NCBI RefSeq assembly: GCF_054482525.1 | Contig: NZ_CM137006.1 | Reading direction: 5' to 3' (one strand) | DNA: 64,000 nt | In this document: one piece after another, positions 6,599-48,893 of the stretch | Layout: each line of letters opens with the position of its first letter | Position numbering within the stretch: the stretch's first letter is position 1 | Notes under the pieces: model-generated | Seen by the model: the letters and a program-made list of their open reading frames with translations, nothing else | Database searches by the model: none | What the model was told of the DNA's origin: nothing | Program-made: the position numbers and the translations under genes

Positions 6599-6599
6599 G

Positions 6600-7037: not shown

Positions 7038-7063
7038 CGCCCGCTTTTGCGGGTTTTTCTTTT
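7038..7063 (+). terminator. Rho-independent terminator between tRNA cluster and holin
   Basis: gcccgcttttgcggg hairpin followed by a T-run. Confidence 0.5.
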
Positions 7064-7123
7064 CAAATCCCTTTCATTTCTCAGTGTAAAACTACGCCAT
7101 CCGTTATTTGCGGAGGTGAGGCT

Positions 7124-7339: not shown

Positions 7340-7343
7340 TTCA

Positions 7344-7694
7344 ATGACTCAAAACTATGAACTGATTGTGAAAGGGATCCGCAATTTTGAGAATAAAGTT
7401 ACGGTAACTTTAGCGTTACGGGACAAAAAACGCTTTGACGGCGAAATTTTTGACCTGGACATCTCGCTGGACCGTGTTGAAGGTGCCGCGCTGGAGTTTT
7501 ATGAGGCAGCAGCCAGAAGGAGCATCAGACAGGTCTTCCTGGATGTTGCTGCCGGGTTATGTGAAGGGGATGAGCAGTCGCCGGAAAAGCGCCCCGTAAT
7601 TTTAGAGGCGCAGAATGTGTGGATAACCTACAAAGGAAAGCTACCAGGAAGAATTACTGGTTCTCTGAAGACTCCTCCGGAATCACAACCTTAA
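7344..7694 (+). CDS. Hypothetical protein between holin and endolysin (YdfR/DUF1327-like by position)
   Basis: 116-aa ORF 4 nt after the holin stop; Qin prophage has ydfR in the same position. Confidence 0.4.
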   Translation: MTQNYELIVKGIRNFENKVTVTLALRDKKRFDGEIFDLDISLDRVEGAALEFYEAAARRSIRQVFLDVAAGLCEGDEQSPEKRPVILEAQNVWITYKGKLPGRITGSLKTPPESQP

Positions 7695-12600: not shown

Positions 12601-12611
12601 CCGAGGTCATT

Positions 12612-12794
12612 ATGTTTCTGATAATTCTCGCGCCACTGGTGGGCGTGCTGGGTGCGCTTTTGCTGGCGTATGGTGCCTGGCTGATTTATCCCCCGGCGGG
12701 TTTTGTTGTTGCCGGGGTGCTGTGCCTGTTCTGGTCGTGGCTGGTGGCGCGATATCTCGACCGTACACAGCCGTCTGTCGGCGGAGGTAAATAG
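12612..12794 (+). CDS. Small membrane protein (2 predicted TM helices)
   Basis: 60-aa hydrophobic ORF between terminase and portal; stop overlaps portal start. Confidence 0.3.
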
Positions 12795-14035
12795 TGTTCT
12801 TTTCGGGATTATTTCAACGAAAAAGTGACGCACCGGTGACCACGCCAGCAGAGCTGGCGGATGCCATCGGGTTGTCTTACGACACCTATACCGGAAAGCA
12901 GATCAGCAGTCAGCGGGCCATGCGACTGACGGCGGTTTTTTCCTGCGTCAGAGTGCTGGCAGAGTCGGTCGGGATGTTGCCCTGCAATCTGTATCACCTG
13001 AACGGCAGCCTGAAACAGAGGGCCACCGGCGAACGTCTGCATAAGCTGATCTCCACGCATCCCAATGGCTATATGACGCCGCAGGAGTTCTGGGAGCTGG
13101 TGGTCACCTGTCTGTGCCTGAGGGGAAACTTTTACGCCTACAAAGTGAAAGCATTTGGCGAAGTGGCTGAACTGCTGCCCGTCGATCCCGGTTGTGTGGT
13201 ACCGAAGCTTAACAGTCGCTGGGAGCCGGTCTATCAGGTCACATTCCCGGACGGTTCCACGGATGTACTGAGCCAGGAAGATATCTGGCATGTGCGCACG
13301 CTGACGCTGGACGGTCTGGTGGGACTGAATCCCATCGCCTATGCCCGCGAGGCAATATCGCTGGCAGCAGCGACCGAAGAGCACGGGGCCAGACTGTTCA
13401 GCAATGGTGCGGTGACGTCCGGTGTGTTGCGTACAGAACAGACGCTGTCGGATCAGGCTTATGAGCGCCTGAAGAAAGATTTTGAGGAGCGTCACACCGG
13501 GCTTGGCAATGCTCACCGCCCGATGATCCTTGAGATGGGGCTGGACTGGAAGTCGATGGCGCTGAACGCCGAGGACAGCCAGTTCCTGGAAACCCGCAAG
13601 TTTCAGCTTGAAGAAATCTGTCGTCTGTTCCGGGTGCCGTTGCACATGGTGCAGAACACCGATCGCGCCACCTTCAACAATATCGAAGAGCTGGGGCTGG
13701 GATTTATCAACTATTCACTGGTGCCGTATCTGACCCGCATCGAACAGCGGATCAACACCGGACTGGTACGAAAAAGTAAGCAGGGCGTTTATTACGCCAA
13801 ATTTAACGCCGGGGCGTTACTGCGCGGGGATATGAAGTCCCGTTTTGAAGCCTACGCCACCGGGATCAACTGGGGAATTTACTCTCCCAATGACTGCCGC
13901 GACCTGGAAGATATGAATCCGCGTCCCGGTGGTGATGTCTATCTCACACCGATGAACATGACCACAAAACCCTCCGATGGCAGTAAAGCCGGTAAGCAGA
14001 AGGATAACGCCAATGCAGACGAAACAACGTCTTGA
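12794..14035 (+). CDS. Portal protein (HK97-type)
   Basis: 413 aa; gene order and HK97-portal-like sequence. Confidence 0.8.
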   Translation: MFFSGLFQRKSDAPVTTPAELADAIGLSYDTYTGKQISSQRAMRLTAVFSCVRVLAESVGMLPCNLYHLNGSLKQRATGERLHKLISTHPNGYMTPQEFWELVVTCLCLRGNFYAYKVKAFGEVAELLPVDPGCVVPKLNSRWEPVYQVTFPDGSTDVLSQEDIWHVRTLTLDGLVGLNPIAYAREAISLAAATEEHGARLFSNGAVTSGVLRTEQTLSDQAYERLKKDFEERHTGLGNAHRPMILEMGLDWKSMALNAEDSQFLETRKFQLEEICRLFRVPLHMVQNTDRATFNNIEELGLGFINYSLVPYLTRIEQRINTGLVRKSKQGVYYAKFNAGALLRGDMKSRFEAYATGINWGIYSPNDCRDLEDMNPRPGGDVYLTPMNMTTKPSDGSKAGKQKDNANADETTS

Positions 14036-14663
14036 TGTACCGCTGAGTCTGAAATCTGTCAGTGACTCCGGTGAGTTTGAAGGGTATGGCTCCGTCTTTG
14101 GTGTAAAGGACAGCCACGATGATGTGGTGATGTCCGGGGCATTTGCTGCTTCCCTGCGGGCGTGGAGTGACAGAAAAGCGTTACCTGCGCTGCTCTGGCA
14201 GCACCGCATGGATGAACCCATCGGTGTTTACACCGAAATGAAGGAAGACGATGTCGGGCTTTACGTCAGGGGACGGTTGCTTATTGATGATGATCCCCTC
14301 GCAAAACGCGCACATGCACACATGAAGGCCGGTTCGTTAACCGGCCTTTCTATTGGGTACGTCCTGAAAGACTGGGAATACGACCGGAGCAAAGAAGCCT
14401 TTCTGCTGAAAGAAATCGACCTCTGGGAAGTCAGCCTGGTGACGTTCCCGTCTAACGACGAGGCGCGGATCAGCGACGTCAAGAACGCACTGGCCCGCGG
14501 GGAAATCCCCGAACAGAAAAAAATCGAAAGAGTCCTGCGTGATGTCGGACTCTCCCGTACCCAGGCCAAAGCATTCATGGCCGGGGGCTATGGCGCACTG
14601 TCCCTGCGCGACGCTGAGGATGTGGGCTCTGCACTGAATGCACTGAAAAATCTAAACTTCTAA
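13977..14663 (+). CDS. Prohead protease (HK97-type)
   Basis: 228 aa between portal and capsid; start may be internal. Confidence 0.7.
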   Translation: MAVKPVSRRITPMQTKQRLDVPLSLKSVSDSGEFEGYGSVFGVKDSHDDVVMSGAFAASLRAWSDRKALPALLWQHRMDEPIGVYTEMKEDDVGLYVRGRLLIDDDPLAKRAHAHMKAGSLTGLSIGYVLKDWEYDRSKEAFLLKEIDLWEVSLVTFPSNDEARISDVKNALARGEIPEQKKIERVLRDVGLSRTQAKAFMAGGYGALSLRDAEDVGSALNALKNLNF

Positions 14664-14677
14664 TCAGGAGAAATACG

Positions 14678-15883
14678 ATGGCGGTTGATATTAAAGATGT
14701 CGAACAGGTCGCGCAGGAGCTGCAGCAGAAGTTTGACGACTTCAAAGCAAAGAACGACAAGCGCGTGGATGCGATTGAGCAGGAAAAAGGCAAACTTGCC
14801 GGGCAGGTGGAAACCCTGAACGGGAAACTCAGCGAGCTGGAAAACCTCAAAAGCGATCTTGAAAAAGAGCTGCTTGAGCTGAAACGTCCGGCAGGTGGTG
14901 CGCAAAATAAACTGGCCACCGAGCATAAAGAAGCGTTTGTGGGCTTCCTGCGTAAAGGCCGTGAAGATGGTCTGCGCGATCTGGAGCGCAAGGCATTACA
15001 GGTGGGCACCGATGAAGACGGCGGCTATGCCGTGCCGGAAGCACTGGATCGCAACATTCTCACCCTGCTGAAAGATGAAGTGGTGATGCGCCAGGAAGCC
15101 ACGGTGATCAGCGTTGGTGGTTCCGACTACAAAAAACTGGTGAATCTGGGCGGCACGGCTTCCGGATGGGTTGGCGAGACTGACGCGCGCTCCCAGACTG
15201 CCACCTCAAAACTGGGCCTGATTGAACCTTTCATGGGGGAAATCTACGGTAACCCGCAGGCCACCCAGAAAATGCTGGATGATGCCTTTTTCAACGTGGA
15301 AGCATGGATCAACAGCGAGCTGGCAACCGAATTTGCCGAACAGGAAGAAATTGCCTTTACCACCGGCGATGGTACCAAGAAGCCGAAAGGGTTCCTGGCG
15401 TATGAGTCCACGGATGAAACAGACAAGGTCCGGGCGTTCGGCAAACTTCAGCATATTGTATCCGGCGAAGCGACGGCGGTGACCGCAGATGCCATTATCA
15501 AACTGATTTACACGCTGCGTAAGGCACACCGCACTGGCGCGAAGTTCATGATGAACAACAACAGTCTGTTTGCCATCCGTCTGCTGAAAGACAGTGAGGG
15601 TAACTATCTGTGGCGTCCGGGGCTGGAGCTGGGGCAGCCGTCCTCTCTGGCGGGTTACGGTATCGCTGAAAACGAACAGATGCCGGATATTGCCGCTGAT
15701 GCGAAAGCCATTGCATTTGGTAACTTCAAACGGGGTTACACCATCGTTGACCGTATCGGTACCCGCATTCTGCGTGACCCGTACACCAATAAACCGTTTG
15801 TCGGTTTTTATACCACCAAGCGCACCGGCGGCATGCTGGTCGATTCGCAGGCCATCAAACTGCTGAAGATTGCAGCGGCGTAA
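14678..15883 (+). CDS. Major capsid protein (HK97 fold) with N-terminal coiled-coil delta domain
   Basis: 401 aa; N-terminal coiled coil, then HK97-like capsid body. Confidence 0.8.
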   Translation: MAVDIKDVEQVAQELQQKFDDFKAKNDKRVDAIEQEKGKLAGQVETLNGKLSELENLKSDLEKELLELKRPAGGAQNKLATEHKEAFVGFLRKGREDGLRDLERKALQVGTDEDGGYAVPEALDRNILTLLKDEVVMRQEATVISVGGSDYKKLVNLGGTASGWVGETDARSQTATSKLGLIEPFMGEIYGNPQATQKMLDDAFFNVEAWINSELATEFAEQEEIAFTTGDGTKKPKGFLAYESTDETDKVRAFGKLQHIVSGEATAVTADAIIKLIYTLRKAHRTGAKFMMNNNSLFAIRLLKDSEGNYLWRPGLELGQPSSLAGYGIAENEQMPDIAADAKAIAFGNFKRGYTIVDRIGTRILRDPYTNKPFVGFYTTKRTGGMLVDSQAIKLLKIAAA

Positions 15884-15934
15884 TCATTCAGGGGGCGCAG
15901 AAGTGCGCCCCCTGTTCTGACAGGTGAAAGAATC

Positions 15935-16123
15935 ATGATCCTGAAACAAGATCTGAAATGGTCACCGGACGGTATGCGTGTTGAGATTATTCGGGCCGGT
16001 GAGTATGAAGATAAAGAATTACCCGAACGGGTACGCGAAATTGCCACTGCAGCTGGGATTGTCTCTGATAAGAGAACACCTGTTGCGCGGGGGGCTGATA
16101 AGTCTAAAAAACAGCATTCATAG
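15935..16123 (+). CDS. Hypothetical small head-module protein
   Basis: 62-aa ORF with RBS, between capsid and connector genes. Confidence 0.3.
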   Translation: MILKQDLKWSPDGMRVEIIRAGEYEDKELPERVREIATAAGIVSDKRTPVARGADKSKKQHS

Positions 16124-22645: not shown

Positions 22646-23343
22646 TGCAGGATATACAGCAGGAAACACTGAATGAGTGTACAAAAGCGGAGCAATCCGC
22701 GCTGGTCGTGCTCTGGGAAGTCGATCTGACAGAAGTCGGCGGAGAGCGTTATTTTTTCTGTAATGAGCAGAACGAAAAAGGTGAGTCAGTCACCTGGCAG
22801 GGGCGACAGTATCAGGCGTACCCTATTCAGGGAAGCGGCTTTGAGATGAACGGCAAAGGAGCCAGTGCAAGACCAACGCTGAAAGTCTCTAACCTGCACG
22901 GCATGGTCACCGGGATGGCGGAAGACCTGCAAAGTCTGGTCGGCGGAACGGTGGTCAGGCGTAAGGTTTACGCCCGTTTTCTGGATGCGGTGAACTTCGT
23001 CAACGGAAACAGTGACGCCGATCCGGAGCAGGAGGTGATCAGCCGCTGGCGCATCGAGCAGTGCAGCGAACTGAGCGCGGTCAGTGCCTCCTTTGTGTTG
23101 TCCACACCGACGGAAACGGATGGTGCCGTTTTTCCGGGGCGCACCATGCTGGCCAACACCTGCACCTGGACCTATCGCGGTGATGAGTGCGGTTATAATG
23201 GTCCGGCTGTCGCGGATGAATATGACCAGCCGACGTCCGATATCACGAAGGATAAATGTAGCAAATGCCTGAGTGGCTGTAAGTTTCGCAATAACGTCGG
23301 CAACTTTGGCGGCTTCCTTTCCATTAACAAACTTTCGCAGTAA
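22645..23343 (+). CDS. L: Minor tail protein L
   Basis: 232 aa, near-identical to lambda L as recalled. Confidence 0.9.
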   Translation: MQDIQQETLNECTKAEQSALVVLWEVDLTEVGGERYFFCNEQNEKGESVTWQGRQYQAYPIQGSGFEMNGKGASARPTLKVSNLHGMVTGMAEDLQSLVGGTVVRRKVYARFLDAVNFVNGNSDADPEQEVISRWRIEQCSELSAVSASFVLSTPTETDGAVFPGRTMLANTCTWTYRGDECGYNGPAVADEYDQPTSDITKDKCSKCLSGCKFRNNVGNFGGFLSINKLSQ

Positions 23344-23348
23344 ATCCC

Positions 23349-24092
23349 ATGACAGAGACAGAATCAGCGATTCTGGCGCACGCCCGGCGATGTGCGCCAG
23401 CGGAGTCGTGCGGCTTCGTGGTGAGAACGCCGGAGGGGGAAAGATATTTTCCCTGCGTGAATATCTCCGGTGAGCCGGAGGAGTATTTCCGGATGTCGCC
23501 GGAGGACTGGCTGCAGGCAGAGATGCAGGGTGAGATTGTGGCGCTGGTCCACAGCCATCCCGGTGGTCTGTCCTGGCTGAGTGAAGCCGACCGGCGGCTG
23601 CAGGTGCAGAGTGATTTACCGTGGTGGCTGGTCTGCCGCGGGGAGATTCATAAATTCCGCTGTGTGCCGTATCTCACCGGGCGGCGCTTTGAGCACGGGG
23701 TGACGGACTGTTACACGCTGTTCCGGGACGCTTACCATCTGGCGGGGATTGAGATGCCGGATTTTCACCGCGAGGATGACTGGTGGCGTAACGGCCAGAA
23801 TCTCTATCTGGATAATCTGGAGGCCACAGGGCTGTATCAGGTGCCGTTGTCATCGGCCCAGCCGGGCGATGTGCTGCTGTGCTGTTTTGGTTCATCGGTG
23901 CCGAATCATGCCGCCATTTACTGCGGCGACGGCGAGCTGTTGCACCATATTCCTGAACAACTGAGCAAACGAGAGAGGTATACCGACAAATGGCAGCGAC
24001 GCACACACTCCCTCTGGCGTCACCAGGCATGGCACGCATCTGCCTTTACGGGGATTTGCAACGATTTGGCCGCCGCATCGACCTTCGTGTGA
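23349..24092 (+). CDS. K: Tail assembly protein K (MPN/NlpC-P60 domains)
   Basis: 247 aa, near-identical to lambda K as recalled. Confidence 0.9.
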   Translation: MTETESAILAHARRCAPAESCGFVVRTPEGERYFPCVNISGEPEEYFRMSPEDWLQAEMQGEIVALVHSHPGGLSWLSEADRRLQVQSDLPWWLVCRGEIHKFRCVPYLTGRRFEHGVTDCYTLFRDAYHLAGIEMPDFHREDDWWRNGQNLYLDNLEATGLYQVPLSSAQPGDVLLCCFGSSVPNHAAIYCGDGELLHHIPEQLSKRERYTDKWQRRTHSLWRHQAWHASAFTGICNDLAAASTFV

Positions 24093-24637
24093 AAACGGGG
24101 GCTGAAGCCATCCGGGCGCTGTCCACACAGGTCCCGGCGTTTCGTCAGAAACTGAATGACGGCTGGTATCAGGTGCGCATTGCCGGGCGTGATGCAGGTG
24201 AAACCGAATTATCTGCCCGTCTTAATGAGCCGCTGGCAAATGGTGCAGTGATCCACATCGTGCCGCGTCTGGCGGGAGCCAAAAGTGGCGGTGTTTTTCA
24301 GGCGGTGCTGGGTGCGGCGCTGATTGCGGTGGCGTGGTGGAACCCCGCAGGCTGGCTGGGTGCCGCGGCTTTATCGGGCATGTATGCGGCTGGGGCCAGT
24401 ATGATCCTGGGTGGTGTGGCGCAGATGCTGGCACCGAAAGCCCGGACGCCCACGGCAGCCAGTACAGATAACGGCAAACAGAACACGTATTTCTCGTCAC
24501 TGGATAACATGGTTGCCCAGGGCAATGTTCTGCCCGTTCTGTACGGTGAAATGCGTGTGGGGTCGCGAGTGGTATCTCAGGAGATCAGCACGGCAGATGA
24601 AGGTGATGGTGGTCAGGTTGTGGTGATTGGTCGCTGA
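23990..24637 (+). CDS. I: Tail assembly protein I
   Basis: 215 aa; MAATHTLPLASPGMARICLYGDLQRFGRRIDLRVKTGAEAIRAL as in lambda I as recalled. Confidence 0.8.
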   Translation: MAATHTLPLASPGMARICLYGDLQRFGRRIDLRVKTGAEAIRALSTQVPAFRQKLNDGWYQVRIAGRDAGETELSARLNEPLANGAVIHIVPRLAGAKSGGVFQAVLGAALIAVAWWNPAGWLGAAALSGMYAAGASMILGGVAQMLAPKARTPTAASTDNGKQNTYFSSLDNMVAQGNVLPVLYGEMRVGSRVVSQEISTADEGDGGQVVVIGR

Positions 24638-24697
24638 TGCAAAATGTTTTATGTGAAACCGCCTGCGGGCGGTTTTGTCGTTTATGGAGCGTGAAGA

Positions 24698-27600
24698 ATG
24701 GGTAAAGGCAGCAGTAAGGGGCATACCCCGCGCGAAGCGAAGGACAACCTGAAGTCCACGCAGTTGCTGAGTGTGATCGATGCCATCAGCGAAGGGCCGA
24801 TTGACGGTCCGGTGGATGGATTAAAAAGCGTGCTGCTGAACAGTACGCCAGTGCTGGACACTGAGGGGAATACCAACATCTCCGGCGTCACGGTGGTGTT
24901 CCGGGCAGGTGAGCAGGAGCAGACTCCGCCGGAGGGGTTTGAATCCTCCGGCTCCGAGACGGTGCTCGGTACAGAAGTGAAATATGACACGCCGATCACC
25001 CGGACCATCACGTCGGCAAACATTGACCGTCTGCGTTTTACTTTCGGCGTGCAGACACTGGTGGAAACCACCTCAAAGGGGGACAGGAATCCGTCGGAAG
25101 TCCGCCTGCTGGTTCAGATACAGCGTAACGGTGGCTGGGTGACGGAAAAAGACATCACCATTAAGGGCAAAACCACCTCGCAGTATCTGGCCTCGGTGGT
25201 GGTGGGTAACCTGCCGCCGCGCCCGTTTAATATCCGGATGCGCAGGATGACGCCGGACAGCACCACAGACCAGCTGCAGAACAAAACGCTCTGGTCGTCA
25301 TACACCGAAATCATCGATGTGAAACAGTGCTACCCGAACACGGCACTGGTCGGCGTGCAGGTGGACTCGGAACAGTTCGGCAGTCAGCAGGTGAGCCGTA
25401 ATTATCATCTTCGCGGGCGCATTCTGCAGGTGCCGTCGAACTATAACCCGCAGACGCGGCAATACAGCGGTATCTGGGACGGAACGTTTAAGCCAGCATA
25501 CAGCAACAACATGGCCTGGTGTCTGTGGGATATGCTGACCCATCCGCGCTACGGCATGGGGAAGCGTCTCGGTGCGGCGGATGTGGACAAATGGGCGCTG
25601 TATGTCATCGGCCAGAATTGCGACCAGTCGGTGCCGGATGGCTTTGGTGGCACGGAGCCGCGCATCACCTGTAATGCCTGGCTGACCACACAGCGTAAGG
25701 CGTGGGATGTTCTCAGTGATTTCTGCTCGGCGATGCGCTGTATGCCGGTATGGAACGGGCAGACGCTGACGTTCGTGCAGGACCGACCATCAGATAAGGT
25801 GTGGACCTATAACCGCAGTAATGTGGTGATGCCGGATGATGGCGCGCCGTTCCGCTACAGCTTCAGCGCCCTGAAGGACCGCCATAATGCCGTTGAGGTG
25901 AACTGGATTGACCCGAACAACGGCTGGGAGACGGCGACAGAGCTTGTTGAAGATACGCAGGCCATTGCCCGTTACGGTCGTAACGTCACGAAGATGGATG
26001 CCTTTGGCTGTACCAGCCGGGGGCAGGCACACCGCGCCGGGCTGTGGCTGATTAAAACGGAACTGCTGGAAACGCAGACCGTGGACTTCAGCGTGGGCGC
26101 AGAAGGGCTTCGCCATGTACCGGGCGATGTCATTGAAATCTGTGATGATGACTATGCCGGTATCAGCACCGGTGGTCGTGTGCTGGCGGTGAACAGCCAG
26201 ACCCGGACGCTGACGCTCGACCGTGAAATCACGCTGCCATCCTCCGGTACCACGCTGATAAGCCTGGTTGACGGAAGTGGCAATCCGGTCAGCGTGGAGG
26301 TTCAGTCCGTCACCGACGGCGTGAAGGTAAAAGTGAGCCGTGTTCCTGACGGTGTTGCTGAATACAGCGTATGGGGGCTGAAGCTGCCGACGCTGCGCCA
26401 GCGCCTGTTCCGCTGTGTGAGTATCCGGGAGAACGATGACGGTACGTATGCCATCACCGCCGTGCAGCATGTACCGGAAAAAGAAGCCATCGTGGATAAC
26501 GGGGCGCACTTTGACGGCGACCAGAGCGGCACGGTGAATGGTGTCACGCCGCCAGCGGTGCAGCACCTGACCGCCGAAGTCACCGCAGACAGCGGGGAAT
26601 ATCAGGTGCTGGCGCGATGGGACACGCCGAAGGTGGTGAAGGGCGTGAGCTTCCTGCTTCGCCTTACCGTGGCAGCGGACGACGGCAGTGAGCGGCTGGT
26701 CAGCATGGCCCGGACGACGGAAACCACATACCGCTTCAGGCAACTGGCGCTGGGGCGTTACACGCTGACGGTCCGGGCGGTAAATGCGTGGGGGCAGCAG
26801 GGCGATCCGGCATCGGTATCGTTCCGGATTGCGGCACCGGCAGCGCCTGTCACTATTGAACTGATACCAGGGTATTTTCAGATAACAGCGGTCCCGAAAC
26901 TGGCTGTATATGACCCGACGGTGCAGTTTGAGTTCTGGTTCTCGGAAACGCGGATTACCGATATCAGGCAGGTTGAAACCACAGCCCGCTACCTTGGCAC
27001 GGGGCTGTACTGGATAGCCGCCAGTATCAATATCAAACCGGGCCATGATTATTACTTTTATATCCGCAGTGTGAACACCGTTGGCAAATCGGCATTCGTG
27101 GAGTCCGTCGGTCGGGCGAGCGATGATGCGGAAGGTTACCTGGATTTTTTCAAAGGCAAGATAACCGAATCCCATCTCGGCAAGGAGCTGCTGGAAAAAG
27201 TCGATCTGACGGAGGATAACGCCAGCAGACTGGATGAGTTTTCGAAAGAGTGGAAGGATGCCAACGATAAATGGAATGCCATGTGGGCTGTCAAAATTGA
27301 GCAGACCAAAGACGGCAAACATTATGTCGCGGGTATTGGCCTCAGTATGGAGGACACGGAGGAAGGCAAACTGAGCCAGTTTCTGGTTGCCGCTAACCGT
27401 ATCGCGTTTATTGACCCGGCAAACGGGAATGAAACGCCGATGTTTGTGGCGCAGGGCAATCAGATATTCATGAACGACGTGTTCCTGAAACGCCTGACGG
27501 CCCCCACCATTACCAGTGGTGGAAATCCACCGGCATTTTCCCTGACACCGGATGGGCGGCTGACGGCGAAAAATGCCGATATCAGCGGTAACGTGAATGC

Positions 27601-28093
27601 GAACTCCGGGACGCTCAACAACGTCACGATTAACGAGAACTGTCGGGTTCTGGGAAAACTGTCCGCGAACCAGATTGAAGGCGATCTCGTTAAAACAGTG
27701 GGCAAAGCTTTCCCCCGGGACTCCCGTGCACCGGAACGGTGGCCATCAGGGACCATTACCGTCAGGGTTTATGACGATCAGCCGTTTGACCGGCAGATTG
27801 TTATTCCGGCGGTGGCATTCAGCGGCGCTAAACATGAGAGAGAGCATACTGATATTTACTCCTCATGCCGTCTGATAGTGCGGAAAAACGGTGCTGAAAT
27901 TTATAACCGTACCGCGCTGGATAATACGCTGATTTACAGTGGCGTTATTGATATGCCTGCCGGTCACGGTCACATGACGCTGGAGTTTTCGGTGTCAGCA
28001 TGGCTGGTAAATGACTGGTATCCCACTGCGAGCATCAGCGATTTGCTGGTTGTGGTGATGAAGAAAGCCACTGCAGGCATCACTATTAGCTGA
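24698..28093 (+). CDS. J: Host specificity / central tail fibre protein J
   Basis: 1131 aa; lambda J-like size and position. Confidence 0.9.
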
Positions 28094-28111
28094 ATTTTAT
28101 AACCCAGATAC

Positions 28112-28138
28112 GGGCGCCAGAAATGGCGCCTTTTTTAT
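28112..28138 (+). terminator. Rho-independent terminator after J
   Basis: ggcgccagaaatggcgcc hairpin followed by a T-run. Confidence 0.55.
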
Positions 28139-28160
28139 TGCAGAAAAGCGAGAGGTAATT

Positions 28161-28760
28161 ATGCGTAAATTATGTGCTGTTATTCTGTCCGCAGTAGTCT
28201 GGCTGGTTGCCGCTGGTACGCCAGCGAGCGCAGCAGAGCATCAGTCCACACTAAGCGCCGGGTATCTTCAGACCCATACTGATATGCCAGGCAGCGATGA
28301 CCTGAAGGGCATTAATGTGAAATACCGTTATGAATTTACGGACACGCTGGGGCTGGTGACGTCATTCAGTTATGCCAATGCCAAAGATGAGCAAAAAACG
28401 CATTACAGCGATACCCGCTGGCATGAAGATTCAGTGCGTAACCGCTGGTTCAGCATGATGGCGGGGCCATCTGTACGCGTGAATGAATGGTTCAGTGCTT
28501 ATGCGATGGCAGGTGTGGCTTACAGCCGTGTTTCGACTTTTTCCGGGGATTATCTCCGCGTAACTGACAGCAAGGGGAAAACGAACGATGTGCTGACCGG
28601 AAGTGATGATGATCGCCACAGCAACACGTCTCTGGCGTGGGGAACTGGCGTGCAGTTTAACCCGACCGAATCCGTGGCCGTTGATATTGCTTATGAAGGT
28701 TCCGGCAGTGGCGACTGGCGCACTGACGGTTTCATCGTGGGTGTCGGTTATAAATTCTGA
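28161..28760 (+). CDS. lom: Lom-like outer membrane protein (Ail/Lom family)
   Basis: 199 aa; signal peptide, beta-barrel pattern, C-terminal GVGYKF. Confidence 0.8.
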   Translation: MRKLCAVILSAVVWLVAAGTPASAAEHQSTLSAGYLQTHTDMPGSDDLKGINVKYRYEFTDTLGLVTSFSYANAKDEQKTHYSDTRWHEDSVRNRWFSMMAGPSVRVNEWFSAYAMAGVAYSRVSTFSGDYLRVTDSKGKTNDVLTGSDDDRHSNTSLAWGTGVQFNPTESVAVDIAYEGSGSGDWRTDGFIVGVGYKF

Positions 28761-28786
28761 TTAGCCAGGTAACACAGTGTTATGAC

Positions 28787-28815
28787 AGCCCGCCGGTTCA
28801 GGCGGGCTTTTTTGT
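28787..28815 (+). terminator. Rho-independent terminator after lom
   Basis: agcccgccggttcaggcgggct hairpin followed by a T-run. Confidence 0.55.
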
Positions 28816-28818
28816 GGA

Positions 28819-31224
28819 GTGGATATGGCAGCAGTAAAAATCTCAGGTGTGCTGAAAGATGGTGCGGGAAAACCAATACAGAACTGCACTATTCAACTGA
28901 AGGCAAAGCGTAACAGCACCACGGTACTGGTGAACACGGTGGCCTCTGAAAATCCGGATGAAGCCGGGCGTTACAGCATGGATGTTGAGTATGGCCAGTA
29001 CAGCGTCATCCTGCTGGTTGAAGGTTTTCCGCCTTCACATGCCGGGACCATTACCGTCTATGAAGGCTCCAGACCAGGTACGCTGAATGATTTTCTCGGT
29101 GCCATGACGGAAGATGATGTCATGCCGGAGGCATTGCGTCGTTTTGAGGAAATGGTGGAAGAAGCGGCACGCAACGCTGAAGCCGCCTCTCAGAGCGCAG
29201 CGGCGGCAAAGAAATCAGAAACTGCAGCGGCATCATCGAAGAACGCGGCGAAAACCTCAGAAACGAATGCAGCTAACAGCGCACAGGCGGCAGCGGCCTC
29301 ACAGACTGCATCAGCAAACTCCGCGACAGCAGCCAAAAAATCAGAAACCAACGCGAAAAATAGCGAGACAGCCGCAAAGACGAGCGAAACCAACGCAAAG
29401 TCCAGCCAGACGGCAGCGAAAACCAGCGAAACGAATGCCAAAGCCAGTGAAACTGCGGCAAAAAACAGCCAGGTTGCAGCAGCCCAAAGCGAGAGCGCGG
29501 CAGCCGGTTCTGCGACTTCAGCAGCTGGATCAGCAACTGCTGCGGCTAACAGCCAGAAAGCTGCGAAGACGAGTGAAACTAACGCAAAGTCCAGCCAGAC
29601 GGCAGCGAAGACCAGCGAAACGAATGCCAAAGCCAGCGAAACTGCGGCGAAAAACAGTCAGGATGCAGCAGCCCAAAGCGAGAGTGCTGCAGCTGGTTCT
29701 GCAAGCGCGGCGGCTGCTTCTGCCACTGCATCAGCCAACAGTCAAAAAGCAGCAAAAACCAGTGAAACCAATGCAAAGACAAGCGAGACTGCAGCGGCGA
29801 ACTCGGCGAAAGCATCGGCAGCAAGCCAGACAGCAGCTAAAGCAAGTGAAGACGCAGCCAGAGAGTATGCAAGTCAGGCAGCAGAGCCGTATAAATATGT
29901 CTTACAGCCACTGCCTGATGTGTGGATACCGTTTAACGATTCACTGGATATGATTACGGGCTTTTCGCCGTCATATAAAAAAATTGTTATTGGTGATGAT
30001 GAAATAACGATGCCTGGCGACAAGGTTGTTAAGTTTAAACGCGCATCAACTGCCACATATATCAATAAATCAGGCGTATTTAGTGTTGCTAAAATTGATG
30101 AGCCACGATTTGAAAAAGAAGGTTTATTGATTGAAGGACAGCGCACTAACTATTTTGTTAAATCCAATACTCCCGCTGAATGGACGAGTACCAGCAATAT
30201 CGATAAAACTAATAATGGTGTTGATGAATTTGGTTTTTCATATGCCAAAATGCGAACAAAAGATAATATGACAGGACAATCATCTGCACTTAGTCTGCAT
30301 ACATGCAGTGCATCCCGGGGGATTGATGTTAGTGGCGATAATAAGTATTGCACTGTTTCATGCAGGGTTAAAGCTCCTGATGGTCTTCGTTGTCGTTTGC
30401 GTTTTGAAAAATACGATGGGTCGGTTTATACATTTTTAGGAGATGCTTATTTAACTTTCGGAACTCTGATAATAGAAAAAACTGGCGGAGCAGCCAATAG
30501 AATAGCAGCTACTGCAACTAAAGATCCGGTTACAGGGTGGATTTTCTATGAGGCAACTATAGAAGCTGTTGAAGGTGAAACCTTAATTGGCGCAATGATT
30601 CAGTATGCGCCGAAAAAAGGTGGTATAACTGAAGCGGGAGATTATATTTACCTTGCAACACCACAATTTGAAAACGGCGGATGTGCTTCATCTTTTGTTA
30701 TTACGACAACTGCACCCGCAACCCGCTCCAGTGATATGGTGACGATCCCAACTGAAAATAATATCTATAATAGACCGCTTACGTGTCTTGTCGAGGTTAA
30801 TAGAAATTGGGGCGATATTCCTCCTAATGTAGCACCGCGTATTTTTGATTTTTCTGGTGTGCCACCTATTGAGTCAATTACATACGCTTTTAACACAACT
30901 GAGAAATATTACGGTCAGCTTTATATGCAGACTTATAAAGCGTCGACAAGTACTTACGTTTCTAGTGTGTTTGCTGGTCGAACTGATGTTCGAAAATTCA
31001 TTGGTGGTTTTAATATTTATTCTGATGGTACTAAACGAGTAGTTTCTAACGGTGAGGCTACTAAAACTATGAAAACGGAGTGGACGGGCGTAAAAACACG
31101 GACCTTTATTCGAATTGGAGGTCAAGCCACATCGGGAACTCGTCATCTATTCGGCCATTTGAGAAATCTTCGTCTCTGGCATAAAGAATTAACTGATGCG
31201 CAAATGGGGGAGAGTATTAAATGA
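28819..31224 (+). CDS. stf: Side tail fibre protein (Stf-like) with Ala/Ser/Thr repeat stalk
   Basis: 801 aa; N-terminus like lambda Stf as recalled; central KTSETNAKxSxTAA repeats. Confidence 0.8.
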   Translation: MDMAAVKISGVLKDGAGKPIQNCTIQLKAKRNSTTVLVNTVASENPDEAGRYSMDVEYGQYSVILLVEGFPPSHAGTITVYEGSRPGTLNDFLGAMTEDDVMPEALRRFEEMVEEAARNAEAASQSAAAAKKSETAAASSKNAAKTSETNAANSAQAAAASQTASANSATAAKKSETNAKNSETAAKTSETNAKSSQTAAKTSETNAKASETAAKNSQVAAAQSESAAAGSATSAAGSATAAANSQKAAKTSETNAKSSQTAAKTSETNAKASETAAKNSQDAAAQSESAAAGSASAAAASATASANSQKAAKTSETNAKTSETAAANSAKASAASQTAAKASEDAAREYASQAAEPYKYVLQPLPDVWIPFNDSLDMITGFSPSYKKIVIGDDEITMPGDKVVKFKRASTATYINKSGVFSVAKIDEPRFEKEGLLIEGQRTNYFVKSNTPAEWTSTSNIDKTNNGVDEFGFSYAKMRTKDNMTGQSSALSLHTCSASRGIDVSGDNKYCTVSCRVKAPDGLRCRLRFEKYDGSVYTFLGDAYLTFGTLIIEKTGGAANRIAATATKDPVTGWIFYEATIEAVEGETLIGAMIQYAPKKGGITEAGDYIYLATPQFENGGCASSFVITTTAPATRSSDMVTIPTENNIYNRPLTCLVEVNRNWGDIPPNVAPRIFDFSGVPPIESITYAFNTTEKYYGQLYMQTYKASTSTYVSSVFAGRTDVRKFIGGFNIYSDGTKRVVSNGEATKTMKTEWTGVKTRTFIRIGGQATSGTRHLFGHLRNLRLWHKELTDAQMGESIK
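29180..29860 (+). repeat. In-frame tandem repeats within stf, including a direct duplication of about 120-190 bp
   Basis: gcaaagtccagccagacggcagcgaa... occurs at about 29395 and again at about 29581; many shorter related units. Confidence 0.7.
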
Positions 31225-31502
31225 AAGATTTAACACTCAAATTTGCAGACAGGGCCGACTTTTCGGCCTTTATGGAGAGCATTGGCTATTATGATGACGA
31301 GTCGATGCAGGATGATATTCTTATTGACGTGATAGGTAATGTGTACAAAGAAACCGGAGAACTTACTGAAGATGGCGAGCCGGTATGTGTTAAGGAGGAC
31401 GGATATTTTGTAAACGTGCGCATCATTAATGATTCGCAAATATCGTCATTATTCGATGAATACGCGGTTGCTGTTGAGCATCAACTTCGTGGCTGGATGT
31501 GA
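31221..31502 (+). CDS. Hypothetical acidic protein between the two fibre genes
   Basis: 93-aa ORF whose start overlaps the stf stop. Confidence 0.35.
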   Translation: MKDLTLKFADRADFSAFMESIGYYDDESMQDDILIDVIGNVYKETGELTEDGEPVCVKEDGYFVNVRIINDSQISSLFDEYAVAVEHQLRGWM

Positions 31503-31511
31503 GGAAGGAAA

Positions 31512-32552
31512 ATGGCTACATCGACAGTAATTCCTGATGATATCAAAACGCTAAAATCCGACGTTAGCAAATTAAAAAACGATCAAGGGAGCTACGCAAC
31601 AAAATCATATGTAGACAATAAAACAACATGGAATAGTTATTGCAATGTAATCTATGATCAAAAGACATTGCCGACCACTGGAACTATATTTAGCGGTAAG
31701 ATTCACTTGTCAAATAAGACAGGAGAAACCGAAAACGCTTATAGTGAGATGTACACCAGAAAAAATATTGACGGTACAAAAGATACAATGACAAGGATTG
31801 TCACACACAATGGAACAAAAGGTATCTTTTGGGATTTTAGCGATCTTTACGGCGGAACATTAATTTTTCCAGGCAGTGATGGTTACCTTAAGATGGGGAA
31901 CTGTCTCATGTCGTATGGTGTGCGGGGAAGTAACGCGCTTATTAAGTTTGACTGCACAGACACATTACAAATCAAATATGCCAATCATGGGTCAACCATG
32001 ACATTAAACACACAGGGGACCGCTCATTCTGGCGCTACTACTAGTTTGTGGGGTAACTCTACCCGTCCGGTTGTATATGAAGTTGGTGCTGATGGTGGCG
32101 CGTATATGTTCTATGCGCAGAAAAATACCGATAACACCTATATGTTAAGCGTTAATGGTGCATGTCATGCCACCGCATTTAACCAGCATTCCGACCGGGA
32201 TCTGAAAGACAACATTCAGGTGATCGATAATGCAACCGACCGCATCCGTAAAATGAACGGCTATACATACACGCTTAAAGAAAACGGTATGCCCTATGCA
32301 GGTGTCATTGCACAGGAAGCTCTGGAAGCAATCCCAGAAGTTGTAGGTTCCGCAATGAAATATCAGGACGGTGCAAGCGGATCGGAAGGTGAAGAAGGTG
32401 AACGTTATTACACAGTAGATTATTCTGGTGTTACTGGCTTGCTTGTTCAGGTAGCCAGAGAGTCAGACGACAGAATAACAGTACTGGAAGAAGAAAACGC
32501 AGAATTAAGGCAAAGATTATCTGCAATTGAGGCGACGCTTGCGTCTAAATAA
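31512..32552 (+). CDS. Second tail fibre/spike-like protein with C-terminal intramolecular chaperone (peptidase S74-like) domain
   Basis: 346 aa; C-terminal DRDLKDNIQVID...RIRKMNGYTYTLK...GVIAQEA plus terminal coiled coil. Confidence 0.6.
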   Translation: MATSTVIPDDIKTLKSDVSKLKNDQGSYATKSYVDNKTTWNSYCNVIYDQKTLPTTGTIFSGKIHLSNKTGETENAYSEMYTRKNIDGTKDTMTRIVTHNGTKGIFWDFSDLYGGTLIFPGSDGYLKMGNCLMSYGVRGSNALIKFDCTDTLQIKYANHGSTMTLNTQGTAHSGATTSLWGNSTRPVVYEVGADGGAYMFYAQKNTDNTYMLSVNGACHATAFNQHSDRDLKDNIQVIDNATDRIRKMNGYTYTLKENGMPYAGVIAQEALEAIPEVVGSAMKYQDGASGSEGEEGERYYTVDYSGVTGLLVQVARESDDRITVLEEENAELRQRLSAIEATLASK

Positions 32553-34819: not shown

Positions 34820-35574
<755 letters not shown>

Positions 35575-35678
35575 ATCAGCATACTTGTCCTTAGCCTTCT
35601 GCAGTGACAGCTGGTAGTACAGCGTGCTTCTGGCCAGCCCTGCAGCCTTTAACAGGTCAGACTGGCAGTGTCCGCACC

Positions 35679-36209
35679 TCAGGCTCCGGATGACTTTCGT
35701 TTTTTCTCCAGCTCCTGGCGCTTTTTTTCCAGGAGATGCTCCTGCATGGCTTTCAGATATGCATTTTCTGCGCGAAGATAACGCAGCTCATTCTTCATCT
35801 CTTCCGGCGTCATGTTTGCCTCGTTTTCATGGGTATCATCAGAACGGGTCATGCTTTTCTCCTTCCTGCGCCTGATAAAGGCCTCATTACCAGATTTGCG
35901 GTAGCCTTTTATCCAGTTTTTAACCGTGTTGTGGCTGGGAATGTTAAACCGGGCAGCTACCCGGGGTAGAGACTCAGAATGCCCGAGAGCATAAAGAACC
36001 ACGCAAAGTTTATCTTCAGGAGAATAGCTACGCTTGTGTCTGCAATCCAGTGCCCGAGGACCGTGAAGAAGAAAAAGATTAATCCAGTGTGAGAGGCTGG
36101 TGTGAGAAAGTTGAAAGAGTTTTGCCGTAGAAATGATGCCTGCATGACCAGCCAGGTAATGATTTACAGCGGCAAGTTTTACTTCAAATGAATGTTTCAT
36201 AAACTGCAC
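35679..36209 (-). CDS. IS3-family transposase OrfA (HTH)
   Basis: 176 aa with HTH N-terminus and leucine-zipper-like C-terminus. Confidence 0.8.
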   Translation of the reverse strand: MQFMKHSFEVKLAAVNHYLAGHAGIISTAKLFQLSHTSLSHWINLFLLHGPRALDCRHKRSYSPEDKLCVVLYALGHSESLPRVAARFNIPSHNTVKNWIKGYRKSGNEAFIRRRKEKSMTRSDDTHENEANMTPEEMKNELRYLRAENAYLKAMQEHLLEKKRQELEKKRKSSGA

Positions 36210-43839: not shown

Positions 43840-44223
43840 TTGACTGGCTCATCCAATGTGGAAAAATGTGACTTTTATCACATAATAGTACTAAGTCTGA
43901 ATTTTCCGGGTTATCTCAAAATGGAATACGGTTCGACAAAGATGGAAGAGAGACTCTCTCGCAGCCCTGGTGGCAAATTGGCTTTGTGGGCTTTCTATAC
44001 ATGGTGTGGCTATTTTGTCTGGGCAATGGCGCGTTACATCTGGGTGATGAGCCGGATCCCCGATGCCCCCGTGTCGGGATTTGAAAGCGATTTAGGCTCT
44101 ACCGCGGGAAAGTGGTTAGGGGCACTGGTCGGCTTTTTATTTATGGCTCTGGTCGGGGCATTGTTAGGCAGCATTGCCTGGTACACCCGACCTCGTCCCG
44201 CACGCAGCAGACGCTATGAATAA
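43840..44223 (+). CDS. yedR: Inner membrane protein YedR (start uncertain)
   Basis: 127-aa ORF with TM segments; assigned by synteny. Confidence 0.5.
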   Translation: MTGSSNVEKCDFYHIIVLSLNFPGYLKMEYGSTKMEERLSRSPGGKLALWAFYTWCGYFVWAMARYIWVMSRIPDAPVSGFESDLGSTAGKWLGALVGFLFMALVGALLGSIAWYTRPRPARSRRYE

Positions 44224-44262
44224 AAACTGCTAATGTTGCGACTCTTTGGCAACGGAGCGCGT

Positions 44263-44958
44263 ATGGACTTACAACACTGGCAGACACAGTTCGAAAACTG
44301 GTTGAAAAACCATCATCAGCACCAGGACGCGGCCCATGACGTGTGTCATTTTCGCCGCGTCTGGGCTACGGCACAGAAGCTGGCGGCAGATGACGATGTC
44401 GATATGCTGGTGATTTTAACCGCCTGTTATTTTCACGATATTGTGAGCCTGGCGAAAAATCATCCACAACGGCAGCATTCTTCAATCCTGGCGGCAGAAG
44501 AGACGCGTCGCCTGCTCCGTGAAGAGTTCGTGCAATTTCCGGCGGAGAAAATCGAGGCCGTTTGTCATGCCATTGCCGCTCACAGTTTCAGCGCGCAAAT
44601 CGCCCCCTTAACAACGGAAGCTAAAATCGTCCAGGATGCGGATCGGCTGGAAGCCCTGGGGGCGATTGGCCTGGCGCGCGTGTTTGCTGTTTCAGGGGCA
44701 TTGGGCGTGGCGCTGTTTGATGGTGAAGATCCGTTCGCACAGCATCGCCCGCTTGATGATAAACGCTACGCGCTGGATCATTTCCAGACTAAGTTGCTGA
44801 AGCTACCGCAAACCATGCAAACCGCAAGAGGCAAGCAGCTGGCGCAGCACAACGCGCAATTTTTAGTCGAGTTTATGGCGAAGCTCAGTGCCGAACTGGC
44901 GGGGGAGAATGAAGGTGTCGATCACAAGGTGATAGATGCGTTTTCACCCGCGGGCTGA
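44263..44958 (+). CDS. yedJ: HD-domain phosphohydrolase YedJ
   Basis: HD motif (CYFHDIV); synteny upstream of dcm. Confidence 0.8.
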
Positions 44959-45024
44959 GCGCGTGGCCCTAAATGGCTGTAATTATGTTAACCTGTCGGC
45001 CATCTCAGATGGCCGGTTAAATCT

Positions 45025-46443
45025 ATGCAGGAAAATATATCAGTAACCGATTCATACAGCACCGGGAATGCCGCACAGGCAATGCTGGAGAAACTGCTGC
45101 AAATTTATGATGTTAAAACGCTGGTGGCGCAGCTTAATGGTGTGGGTGAGAATCACTGGAGCGCGGCAATTTTAAAACGTGCGCTGGCGAATGACTCGGC
45201 ATGGCACCGTTTAAGTGAGAAAGAGTTCGCCCATCTGCAAACGTTGTTACCCAAACCACCGGCACATCATCCGCATTATGCGTTTCGCTTTATCGATCTA
45301 TTTGCCGGTATTGGCGGCATCCGTCGCGGTTTTGAATCGATTGGCGGACAGTGCGTGTTTACCAGCGAATGGAACAAACATGCGGTACGCACTTATAAAG
45401 CCAACCATTATTGCGACCCGGCGACGCATCATTTTAATGAAGATATCCGCGACATCACCCTCAGCCATAAAGACGGCGTGAGTGATGAGACGGCGGCGGA
45501 ACATATTCGTCAACACATTCCTGAACACGATGTATTACTGGCCGGTTTCCCATGTCAGCCATTTTCGCTGGCTGGCGTATCGAAAAAGAACTCGCTCGGG
45601 CGGGCGCACGGTTTTGCCTGCGATACCCAGGGCACGCTGTTCTTTGATGTGGTGCGCATTATCGACGCGCGTCGTCCGGCGATGTTTGTGCTCGAAAACG
45701 TCAAAAACCTGAAAAGTCACGATAAAGGAAAAACGTTCCGCATCATCATGCAGACGCTGGACGAACTGGGCTATGACGTGGCTGATGCAGAAGATAACGG
45801 GCCGGACGATCCGAAAATCATCGATGGTAAACATTTCCTGCCGCAGCACCGTGAACGCATCGTGCTGGTGGGTTTTCGTCGCGATCTGAATCTGAAAGCC
45901 GATTTTACCCTGCGTGATATCAGCGAATGTTTTCCTGCGCAGCGAGTGACGCTGGCCCAGCTGCTGGACCCGATGGTCGAGGCGAAATATATCCTGACGC
46001 CGGTGCTGTGGAAGTACCTCTATCGTTATGCGAAAAAACATCAGGCACGCGGTAACGGCTTCGGTTATGGAATGGTTTATCCGAACAATCCGCAAAGCGT
46101 CACGCGTACTCTGTCTGCGCGTTATTACAAAGATGGCGCGGAAATTTTAATCGATCGCGGCTGGGATATGGCCACGGGTGAAAAAGACTTTGACGATCCG
46201 CTGAATCAGCAACATCGTCCACGTCGGTTAACGCCTCGGGAATGCGCGCGCTTAATGGGTTTTGAAGCGCCGGGAGAAGCGAAATTCCGCATTCCGGTTT
46301 CGGACACTCAGGCCTATCGCCAGTTCGGTAACTCGGTGGTCGTGCCGGTCTTTGCCGCGGTGGCAAAACTGCTTGAGCCAAAAATCAAACAGGCGGTGGC
46401 GTTGCGTCAGCAAGAGGCACAACATGGGCGACGTTCACGATAA
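45025..46443 (+). CDS. dcm: DNA-cytosine methyltransferase Dcm
   Basis: 472 aa; motif [13 protein letters not shown], motif IV PCQPFS. Confidence 0.9.
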
Positions 46444-46894
46444 GGCCACCCGCAGCAAAAATATGCGCGCGATTGCTACGCGTGATACGGCGATTGAGAA
46501 GCGCCTCGCCAGTCTGTTAACCGGGCAGGGCCTGGCATTTCGCGTTCAGGACGCGGATCTCCCCGGACGCCCGGATTTTGTCGTTGATGAATATCGCTGC
46601 GTGATATTTACCCACGGCTGCTTCTGGCATCATCATCACTGCTATCTGTTTAAAATGCCTGCGACTCGAACCGAGTTCTGGCTGGAGAAGATAGGTAAAA
46701 ATGTTGAGCGGGATCGCCGTGATATCAGTCGCTTGCAGGAGCTTGGCTGGCGTGTACTGATTGTCTGGGAGTGTGCGTTACGTGGGCGCGAGAAGCTGAC
46801 GGATGAAGCGCTTACCGAGCGTCTGGAAGAGTGGATCTGCGGCGAAGGTGCCAGCGCGCAGATCGACACGCAGGGGATTCATTTACTCGCTTGA
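46424..46894 (+). CDS. vsr: Very-short-patch repair endonuclease Vsr
   Basis: Internal ATG at 46424 ([17 protein letters not shown]...) overlapping the dcm 3' end by 20 nt. Confidence 0.85.
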
Positions 46895-47803
46895 TGCATC
46901 CTGAATAACTGGCGCAACTACGGGTTTTGCCGGGAAGAGATATTTTCCCAACGTGACCAGTACCACCGCGAAGACAATCACGCCGAGCGCCAGCCATTCA
47001 ATCTTCGACAGCGTCTCTCCGCCCAGTCCCGTACCCAGCAAGACCGCGACCACAGGGTTAACGTAGGCGTAGCTGGTGGCGAGAGCCGGACTGACGTTGC
47101 GGATTAAATACATATAAGCGTTAATGGCGATAATCGAACCAAACAGCGCCAGATAGCCGACCGCAAGGAAGCCTGAAAGGGAAGGGAGCGCCGTCAGTTT
47201 TTCACCCGCAATCATCGACGCGATCATTAACACCACGCCTGCCGCCAGCATCTCAATCGCACCCGCCATCATCCCTACAGGTAAGGTAATGCGCGAGCCA
47301 TAAACCGAGCCAAACGCCCAGCTAATCGAGCCGATTAAAATCAGAATCGCGCCCCACGGATTGCCGCTTAAATTTCCACCGCTATTGAGCATGATGATTC
47401 CGGCAAGCTCAATGGCGATACCCACCCATTCCAGTTTGCGCGTTTTAATGCCAAACAGGCGGCTGAAGCACAGGGTAAAAAGGGGCACGGTTGCAACCAC
47501 TACGGCGGCGATGCCGGAAGGAACATTTTGATGTTCGGCAACCGTCACCATGCCATTACCGACAGCCAGCAATAACAGGCCAATCAGCGCGGCATTGAGC
47601 AGCGGACGTAGCGGGGGGAGTTTGTGTCCGCGCAGTAGCAAAAATGCCAGCAATAAAATACCGGCTGCCAGGAATCGAACGCCCGCCATCATTAACGGAG
47701 GCCAGCTTTCCACGCCAATCCGAATGACAAAATAGGTTGAGCCCCAAATGATATACAACGCAAACAACGCGCCAAAAAGCGGTAACAACTGGCGGAAACG
47801 CAT
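46883..47803 (-). CDS. yedA: EamA/DMT-family transporter YedA
   Basis: 306 aa, 10 TM pattern; synteny. Confidence 0.8.
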   Translation of the reverse strand: MRFRQLLPLFGALFALYIIWGSTYFVIRIGVESWPPLMMAGVRFLAAGILLLAFLLLRGHKLPPLRPLLNAALIGLLLLAVGNGMVTVAEHQNVPSGIAAVVVATVPLFTLCFSRLFGIKTRKLEWVGIAIELAGIIMLNSGGNLSGNPWGAILILIGSISWAFGSVYGSRITLPVGMMAGAIEMLAAGVVLMIASMIAGEKLTALPSLSGFLAVGYLALFGSIIAINAYMYLIRNVSPALATSYAYVNPVVAVLLGTGLGGETLSKIEWLALGVIVFAVVLVTLGKYLFPAKPVVAPVIQDASSE

Positions 47804-47975
47804 AATCCCTCACGGTGGAAATAAAAAGGTGGTTCATAGTAAACGTGAAAATCATTCTGCTGGCGAGAGATATAATTGCACTTGATTGTTAAAAAAATGT
47901 TGACCTGTGAAGCAAGTATCAGAGGTGCCGTTTTTGCTTCATACTTACACCCTTCAACAATAAAAATGAGAGGGA

Positions 47976-48893
47976 ATGCTTTTGGCCGGGAGTAGTTTAC
48001 TGACGTTGCTCGATGATATCGCCACACTGCTGGACGATATTTCCGTGATGGGCAAGCTGGCGGCGAAGAAAACCGCCGGTGTATTAGGGGATGACTTATC
48101 GCTCAATGCGCAACAAGTTTCAGGCGTGCGGGCCAACCGGGAACTTCCCGTGGTCTGGGGCGTGGCGAAAGGATCGCTGATCAATAAAGTGATTCTGGTG
48201 CCGCTGGCGCTGATCATCAGTGCGTTTATCCCGTGGGCGATTACGCCACTGTTGATGATTGGCGGCGCGTTTCTCTGCTTTGAAGGGGTAGAGAAAGTGC
48301 TGCATATGCTGGAGGCGCGTAAACATAAAGAAGATCCGGCGCAGAGTCAGCAGCGTCTGGAGAAGCTGGCGGCGCAGGATCCGCTGAAGTTTGAAAAAGA
48401 CAAAATAAAAGGGGCGATTCGTACCGATTTTATATTGTCTGCGGAAATCGTCGCCATCACGCTGGGGATTGTGGCAGAAGCGCCGTTGCTTAATCAGGTG
48501 CTGGTGCTTTCAGGCATCGCGCTGGTAGTGACCGTGGGCGTCTACGGTCTGGTAGGGGTTATCGTTAAGATTGATGACCTGGGGTATTGGCTGGCGGAAA
48601 AATCCAGCGCGCTGATGCAGGCATTAGGTAAAGGGTTATTGATCATTGCGCCCTGGTTGATGAAAGCGTTATCGATTGTCGGCACGCTGGCGATGTTCCT
48701 CGTCGGCGGCGGGATTGTGGTACATGGTATTGCGCCGCTGCATCACGCCATTGAACATTTCGCCGGGCAGCAAAGTGCAGTGGTGGCGATGATATTACCG
48801 ACTGTTTTAAATCTGATTCTTGGATTTATCATCGGCGGCATCGTGGTGCTGGGAGTGAAAGCAGTAGCGAAAATGCGCGGTCAGGCACATTAA
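47976..48893 (+). CDS. yedI: Inner membrane protein YedI (DUF808)
   Basis: 305 aa; synteny. Confidence 0.75.

Follow-up and report, generated by a model that had tools for sequence, protein, structure and literature searches.

The window, a 64,000-nucleotide stretch of contig NZ_CM137006.1 (RefSeq assembly GCF_054482525.1), contains on its plus strand dcm (45025-46443), encoding the DNA cytosine-5 methyltransferase of CCWGG sites (472 aa), and vsr (46424-46894), encoding the very-short-patch repair T:G mismatch endonuclease (156 aa). The dcm gene, delineated by the ORF list, family profiles and alignment to K-12, ends with the TAA codon at 46441-46443; vsr starts with the ATG codon at 46424-46426. 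The sequence and the ORF list give an out-of-frame overlap at 46424-46443 (plus strand), whose length is 20 nt with the dcm stop codon and 17 nt if only sense codons are counted. Since (46424-45025) mod 3 = 1, vsr is in the +1 frame relative to dcm. The common segment is read (C)AT GGG CGA CGT TCA CGA TAA in the dcm frame, which corresponds to the Dcm tail HGRRSR and the stop, and ATG GGC GAC GTT CAC GAT AA(G) in the vsr frame, which corresponds to vsr codons 1-7 (MGDVHDK); codons 6-7 (GAT AAG) contain the dcm stop codon. This is the geometry of the K-12-type overlapping operon, with the vsr ATG 20 nt inside dcm, the +1 frame, and the dcm stop in vsr codons 6-7. The statement of the earlier note that the vsr start codon lies 20 nt inside the 3' end of dcm in another frame is correct to the base.

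The first six codons of vsr and its Shine-Dalgarno sequence are situated within the 3' end of dcm. The candidate Shine-Dalgarno box AAGAGG (46412-46417, plus strand) is embedded in the dcm codons for Q-E-A, 6 nt upstream of the vsr ATG, and is the same in K-12; its function is putative, and its predicted duplex with the 3' end of 16S rRNA has the energy of -5.8 kcal/mol. At the other end, vsr and the convergent gene yedA (46883-47803, minus strand) overlap by 12 nt (46883-46894), as they do in K-12. Thus vsr is overlapped at both its ends, by dcm at the 5' end and by yedA at the 3' end, which leaves no intergenic space for a terminator.

The region upstream of dcm contains a perfect 9+9 palindrome CGGCCATCT-c-AGATGGCCG (44997-45015) ending 9 nt 5' of the dcm ATG (45025), and the same palindrome is present in K-12. 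No Shine-Dalgarno sequence is obvious for dcm. The palindrome may represent a remnant of the yedJ terminator, a site for a regulator, or a hairpin limiting translation of dcm. Further upstream, in the region 43840-44958, the start of yedJ is ambiguous, as the ORF begins with ATG 44233 (241 aa) and the RefSeq gene begins at 44263 (231 aa). The drpB gene is annotated as 282 nt long here (43942-44223) and 303 nt long in K-12.

Several other features lie elsewhere in the window. A tyrosine integrase gene (6404-7666) adjoins a tRNA-Asn gene (6167-6242) and is followed by integrase and HTH fragments and then by an Rhs core protein gene (11804-15985). Together they form an island beside one of the window's four tRNA-Asn genes; the coordinates were converted from the RefSeq annotation. 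A single 8.6-kb gene (23210-31822) encodes a giant adhesin-like protein with Ig-like domains and is located between a tRNA-Asn gene (beside mtfA) and a gene for a family-9 glycosyltransferase. Between msrQ and zinT there is an inserted transposase gene of IS1397 (IS3 family) with a programmed frameshift (34852-36200).

Dcm methylates the inner cytosine of CCWGG, and Vsr nicks DNA next to the T of the T:G mismatch that arises from deamination of the resulting 5-methylcytosine. The assignment of Dcm is based on the profile NF007772 of NCBIfam (951.6 bits, cut-off 710) together with the presence of motifs I (FAGIGG, 93), IV (PCQ, 176, with catalytic Cys177), VI (ENV, 224) and X (GNS, 435). The protein also matches the Pfam domains DNA_methylase (PF00145, 260.9 bits) and DNA_meth_N, and PDB entry 3ME5 along the full length. 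Vsr scores 133.3 bits with Pfam Vsr PF03852 (cut-off 27), residues 3-74 being aligned with profile positions 2-73, and 181.6 bits with TIGR00632 (cut-off 97.85), residue 1 being aligned with profile position 1. It is 98% identical to chain A of the PDB entry 1CW0 (E=4e-105). All residues that we take to be functional in the E. coli Vsr of 1CW0 are in place: catalytic D51, H64, H69 and D97, zinc-binding C66, H71, C73 and C117, and intercalating F67, W68 and W86. Given the identity of 153/156 residues with the characterised K-12 enzyme, the protein probably acts on T:G mismatches within CTWGG/CCWGG, nicking on the 5' side of the T.

The ATG codon at 46424 is the real start of vsr. For comparison, 42 loci were gathered from contigs of one genome per species by a degenerate DNA pattern for a Vsr motif. 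In 36 of the 39 loci with enough upstream sequence, an ATG codon occurs exactly 189 nt 5' of this motif. In ten related loci, including those of Salmonella and E. albertii, the vsr frame is closed by a stop codon 0-24 nt 5' of the ATG, and in Salmonella the stop directly precedes it. In the 21 loci where the genes do not overlap, the sequence 5' of the vsr ATG has a nucleotide diversity of 0.69-0.71 in each of the three phases, with no periodicity; in vsr codons 2-13 the diversity is 0.18/0.20/0.55 by codon position, similar to codons 15-20. Thus conservation at the protein level begins exactly at the ATG, and the Vsr family profiles (Pfam and TIGR00632) align from residues 1-3. The in-frame upstream codon TTG 46262, which would open an ORF of 210 aa, was rejected as the start, both because ATG 46424 is where conservation and the profiles set in and because a stop 0-24 nt upstream closes the frame in the ten related loci.

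Another potential start is the in-frame ATG of Met14 (46463-46465, plus strand). If it were used, there would be no functional overlap at all. Indeed, all evaluable loci have an ATG at +39, and the N-terminal 20-22 residues are missing in the crystal structures 1VSR and 1ODG. However, codons 2-13 are under protein-level selection in the non-overlapped loci, starting precisely from the first ATG; residues 1-13 are covered by the Pfam and TIGR00632 profiles; and residues 2-156 are contained in 1CW0. Moreover, removal of 14 N-terminal residues lowers the activity of Vsr and abolishes its stimulation by MutL (PMC2715241). Initiation at Met14 is thus highly improbable, and it was rejected as an alternative start on the coding periodicity of codons 2-13; Met14 is a conserved internal codon. 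The only match to the Vsr-motif pattern outside Proteobacteria comes from a Sedimentisphaerales MAG (JANQGW010000175.1). The ORF there begins no earlier than the counterpart of Met14 and lacks the first ATG, and hence it is a shorter or truncated Vsr-like gene.

The junction is that of an ordinary E. coli. The 2.1 kb around it match the E. coli PCN033 chromosome (NZ_CP006632.1) at 100% identity, and the RefSeq annotation of this chromosome gives the same gene coordinates (dcm 3126-4544 and vsr 4525-4995 of the extracted locus). In K-12 MG1655, dcm (b1961, 2030899..2032317) and vsr (b1960, 2030448..2030918) likewise overlap by 20 nt, and the overlap is annotated in the same way in all E. coli RefSeq records sampled. 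Alignment with the K-12 dcm-vsr region, proposed in the earlier note as a check, showed identical ATG, TAA, frame relation and Shine-Dalgarno sequence, with one substitution in the overlap; a different vsr start was looked for, and none emerged. The note had also considered the host segment to be typical, and this is so, as the gene order drpB-yedJ-dcm-vsr-yedA-yedI is that of K-12. At identity of at least 90%, the junction was found in 5,367 of 5,426 complete E. coli genomes. Five divergent E. coli have the same overlap geometry, and even strain N96, whose junction (90% identity) diverges most among the E. coli sampled, retains both the ATG and the TAA at unchanged spacing.

The only strain-specific detail of the junction is the substitution at 46428 (plus strand), where the window has G, K-12 has C and strain JJ2434 has T. 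This is the third position of the Dcm Gly470 codon (GGN) and the second position of vsr codon 2. Therefore all three alleles are silent in Dcm, whereas Vsr residue 2 is Gly, Ala and Val, respectively. The G allele is rare: it was found in 12 of the 5,426 complete E. coli genomes by megablast with a 55-nt query centred on the polymorphic position, a design in which only carriers of G can seed a match.

The remaining 59 of the 5,426 genomes had no dcm-vsr match. Strain CM13 (NZ_CP114893.1) retains vsr and yedJ and matches only 36% of the query; hence most of dcm is gone and vsr is left without its methylase. Two E. coli matches to dcm-vsr are located on plasmids.

Outside E. coli, dcm stops at the same TAA codon within vsr codons 6-7 in 17 loci of other species and genera: E. 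albertii, E. whittamii and other Escherichia, two Salmonella subspecies, Citrobacter, a Klebsiella MAG, Raoultella, Enterobacter and a proteobacterial MAG. The Dcm orthologues in these loci are 76-97% identical. In 15 of the 17, the ATG is at the same position, that is, the overlap is again 20 nt. The start codon lies a few bases away from it in Raoultella and Enterobacter sp. 10-1, where the overlap is probably 17-26 nt. The recurrence of the same dcm stop in the 17 loci, together with the 5,367 of 5,426 E. coli genomes, shows that the overlap geometry is more than chance.

The arrangement is different in more distant Enterobacterales. In Cedecea and Shimwellia, dcm ends 10 nt 5' of the aligned position of the vsr ATG; in Shimwellia there is no ATG at this position, and the likely vsr start is GTG 3 nt downstream. 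The genes are separated by 30 nt in Erwinia mallotivora, by 35 nt in one Buttiauxella, and by 118-206 nt in Erwinia psidii and Mixta. In other Buttiauxella dcm is approximately 0.9-1 kb from vsr, and in two Pantoea the genes are divergent. No Dcm-like sequence was found in the available DNA of 12 of the gathered vsr loci, several of these loci being short or cut. Thus the overlap is a feature of core Enterobacteriaceae, as far as the sampled genera represent them, rather than of Vsr in general.

Across the 18 junctions sharing this dcm stop (that of the window and the 17 loci above), the diversity falls from 0.34 over the 60 nt of dcm preceding the overlap to 0.12 in the overlap itself, and it is 0.17 over the following 40 nt of vsr. 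By vsr codon position the overlap shows 0.10/0.06/0.21; in the dcm frame its least variable positions are the third ones (0.06). The Vsr N-terminus MADVH is conserved in loci without the overlap as well, and the Dcm residues encoded in the overlap are beyond the Pfam domain of Dcm, which ends at residue 448. These observations, taken together, indicate that the Vsr frame dictates the sequence of the overlap. The Vsr N-terminus is thus the constrained partner, and the Dcm tail a passenger that follows the vsr frame.

We consider it very likely that the locus is the canonical enterobacterial dcm-vsr operon, and no observation speaks against this arrangement. In the most likely mechanism, one mRNA from the dcm promoter would produce two separate proteins; ribosomes translating or terminating dcm would deliver or expose the vsr start, which lies 17 nt 5' of the dcm stop, so that a terminating ribosome would adjoin it; and Vsr would be made only alongside Dcm, at a low level. 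The location of the vsr Shine-Dalgarno sequence and ATG in translated dcm RNA is compatible with such coupling. In K-12, dcm and vsr are reportedly transcribed together, Dcm and Vsr are said to be made as separate proteins, and translation of vsr is reported to be poor unless the upstream dcm sequence is translated. Because the junction is nearly identical in sequence to that of K-12, co-transcription and translational coupling are expected here as well. A scan of 44100-48000 for consensus promoters and terminators yielded no promoter inside dcm, but none upstream of dcm either, and is therefore uninformative. A single operon with vsr co-transcribed with dcm is also described in PMC12907096. 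The mutation dcm-6, a nonsense mutation at dcm codon 45, abolishes the vsr activity too (PMC4444293), but this polar effect could alternatively be caused by transcriptional (Rho-dependent) polarity.

One possibility is that the overlap is incidental to the loss of an earlier dcm stop, and that ribosomes reach vsr independently through its own Shine-Dalgarno sequence, with a minor role for coupling. AAGAGG with the 6-nt spacer and the duplex energy given above is usable as a Shine-Dalgarno sequence, and some independent initiation of vsr is possible. The absence of the overlap in Cedecea and Shimwellia, where dcm stops 10 nt early, and the gapped, distant or divergent genes in other Enterobacterales mean that the overlap is not needed for the Vsr function. 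The fact that the Dcm tail follows the vsr frame also speaks for this possibility. On the other hand, this explanation is at odds with the loss of the vsr activity in dcm-6 and with the reportedly poor translation of K-12 vsr when dcm is not translated, and the geometry is fixed across several genera. Besides, the overlapped loci have weaker vsr Shine-Dalgarno sequences. The median energy of pairing between the 16S 3' end and the 18 nt 5' of the vsr ATG is -5.55 kcal/mol in overlapped loci (n=16) and -8.1 in non-overlapped ones (n=21), with p=0.003 in a one-sided Mann-Whitney test; as the test ignores shared ancestry, the difference is only suggestive of dependence of vsr on dcm translation. 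On balance, independent translation of vsr is unlikely to be the main mode. Still less credible is a +1 ribosomal frameshift joining Dcm and Vsr into a fusion protein. It would be in line with the +1 frame relation, and with that relation alone, but 46405-46443 contains no evident slippery or shifty motif, and vsr is equipped with an ATG and a Shine-Dalgarno sequence of its own. Furthermore, the 156-aa Vsr stands alone both in structures and in genomes with non-adjacent dcm, and K-12 reportedly makes separate polypeptides. The probability of such a fusion is negligible.

The coupling itself might be based on RNA structure. A candidate stem formed by 46393-46400 and 46445-46453, with an inner helix formed by 46402-46408 and 46430-46443, would enclose the vsr ribosome-binding site and be melted by ribosomes translating dcm. 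Both helices occur in the minimum-free-energy fold of 46364-46483, a 5-bp core (columns 33-37 with 82-86) is kept by RNAalifold across 18 sequences, and the pair of third codon positions in columns 35/84 occurs as GC, CG, UA, GU and UG. However, the folding energy is no different from that of shuffled sequence (z=-0.62), and the covariation term of alifold (+0.23) provides no support. The 35/84 pair is broken in 6 of the 18 sequences, and its covariation score (0.087) is exceeded by a control slid by +2 columns (0.107). Conservation of amino acids, Val-Ala in Dcm and Ala-Thr in Vsr, accounts for the invariant pairs. We regard this stem, which gained no convincing support from covariation, as an improbable basis of coupling.

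Returning to the coupled operon, we tentatively suggest how it could have arisen, in a scenario that is somewhat more likely to be wrong than right. The overlap may be derived and restricted to core Enterobacteriaceae (Escherichia, Salmonella, Citrobacter, Klebsiella, Raoultella and Enterobacter). In this lineage dcm would have lost an earlier stop codon, such as the one still present 10 nt 5' of vsr in Cedecea and Shimwellia, and its frame would have been extended to the TAA in vsr codons 6-7. Constrained from then on by the coding sequence of dcm, the Shine-Dalgarno sequence of vsr could have weakened, and vsr could have come to depend on translation of dcm, with a possible additional contribution of a weak stem around the ribosome-binding site.

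The dcm-vsr overlap of the window is the already known textbook arrangement in an ordinary E. coli core chromosome. It is useful only as a control, indicating that there is nothing unusual about the dcm-vsr part of the window. As both members of the methylation and repair pair are intact, Dcm methylation of CCWGG and very-short-patch repair should work as in K-12. A small descriptive addition is that fixation of the 20-nt overlap among the sampled genera of core Enterobacteriaceae does not extend to other Enterobacterales, and that the sequence of the overlap is dictated by the Vsr frame and not by that of Dcm.

The closest known system is the K-12 operon, with the same neighbours, the same 20-nt overlap in the +1 frame, the same ATG, TAA and Shine-Dalgarno sequence, and the same 12-nt convergent overlap with yedA. 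The proteins differ slightly: Dcm is identical to that of K-12 at 469/472 positions (99%), with E150D, A155T and Q234K here, and Vsr at 153/156 positions (98%), with Ala2Gly, S45D and V78M here. The dcm-vsr pairs of Salmonella, Citrobacter, Klebsiella, Raoultella and Enterobacter also have the dcm TAA in vsr codons 6-7; however, their Dcm proteins are 76-88% identical to the one considered here and the tails differ, e.g. DGGRSR in Salmonella and HGRRSR in the window. A non-overlapping pair of a cytosine-5 methyltransferase gene and vsr is described in Neisseria (PMC12907096). The non-overlapping pairs of Cedecea, Shimwellia, Erwinia, Mixta and Buttiauxella share with the locus the linkage of vsr to the methyltransferase gene, and the Vsr N-terminus MADVH is conserved in them; they differ in the layout, with gaps of 10-206 nt, approximately 0.9-1 kb between the genes or divergent orientation, and in the stronger Shine-Dalgarno sequences of vsr.
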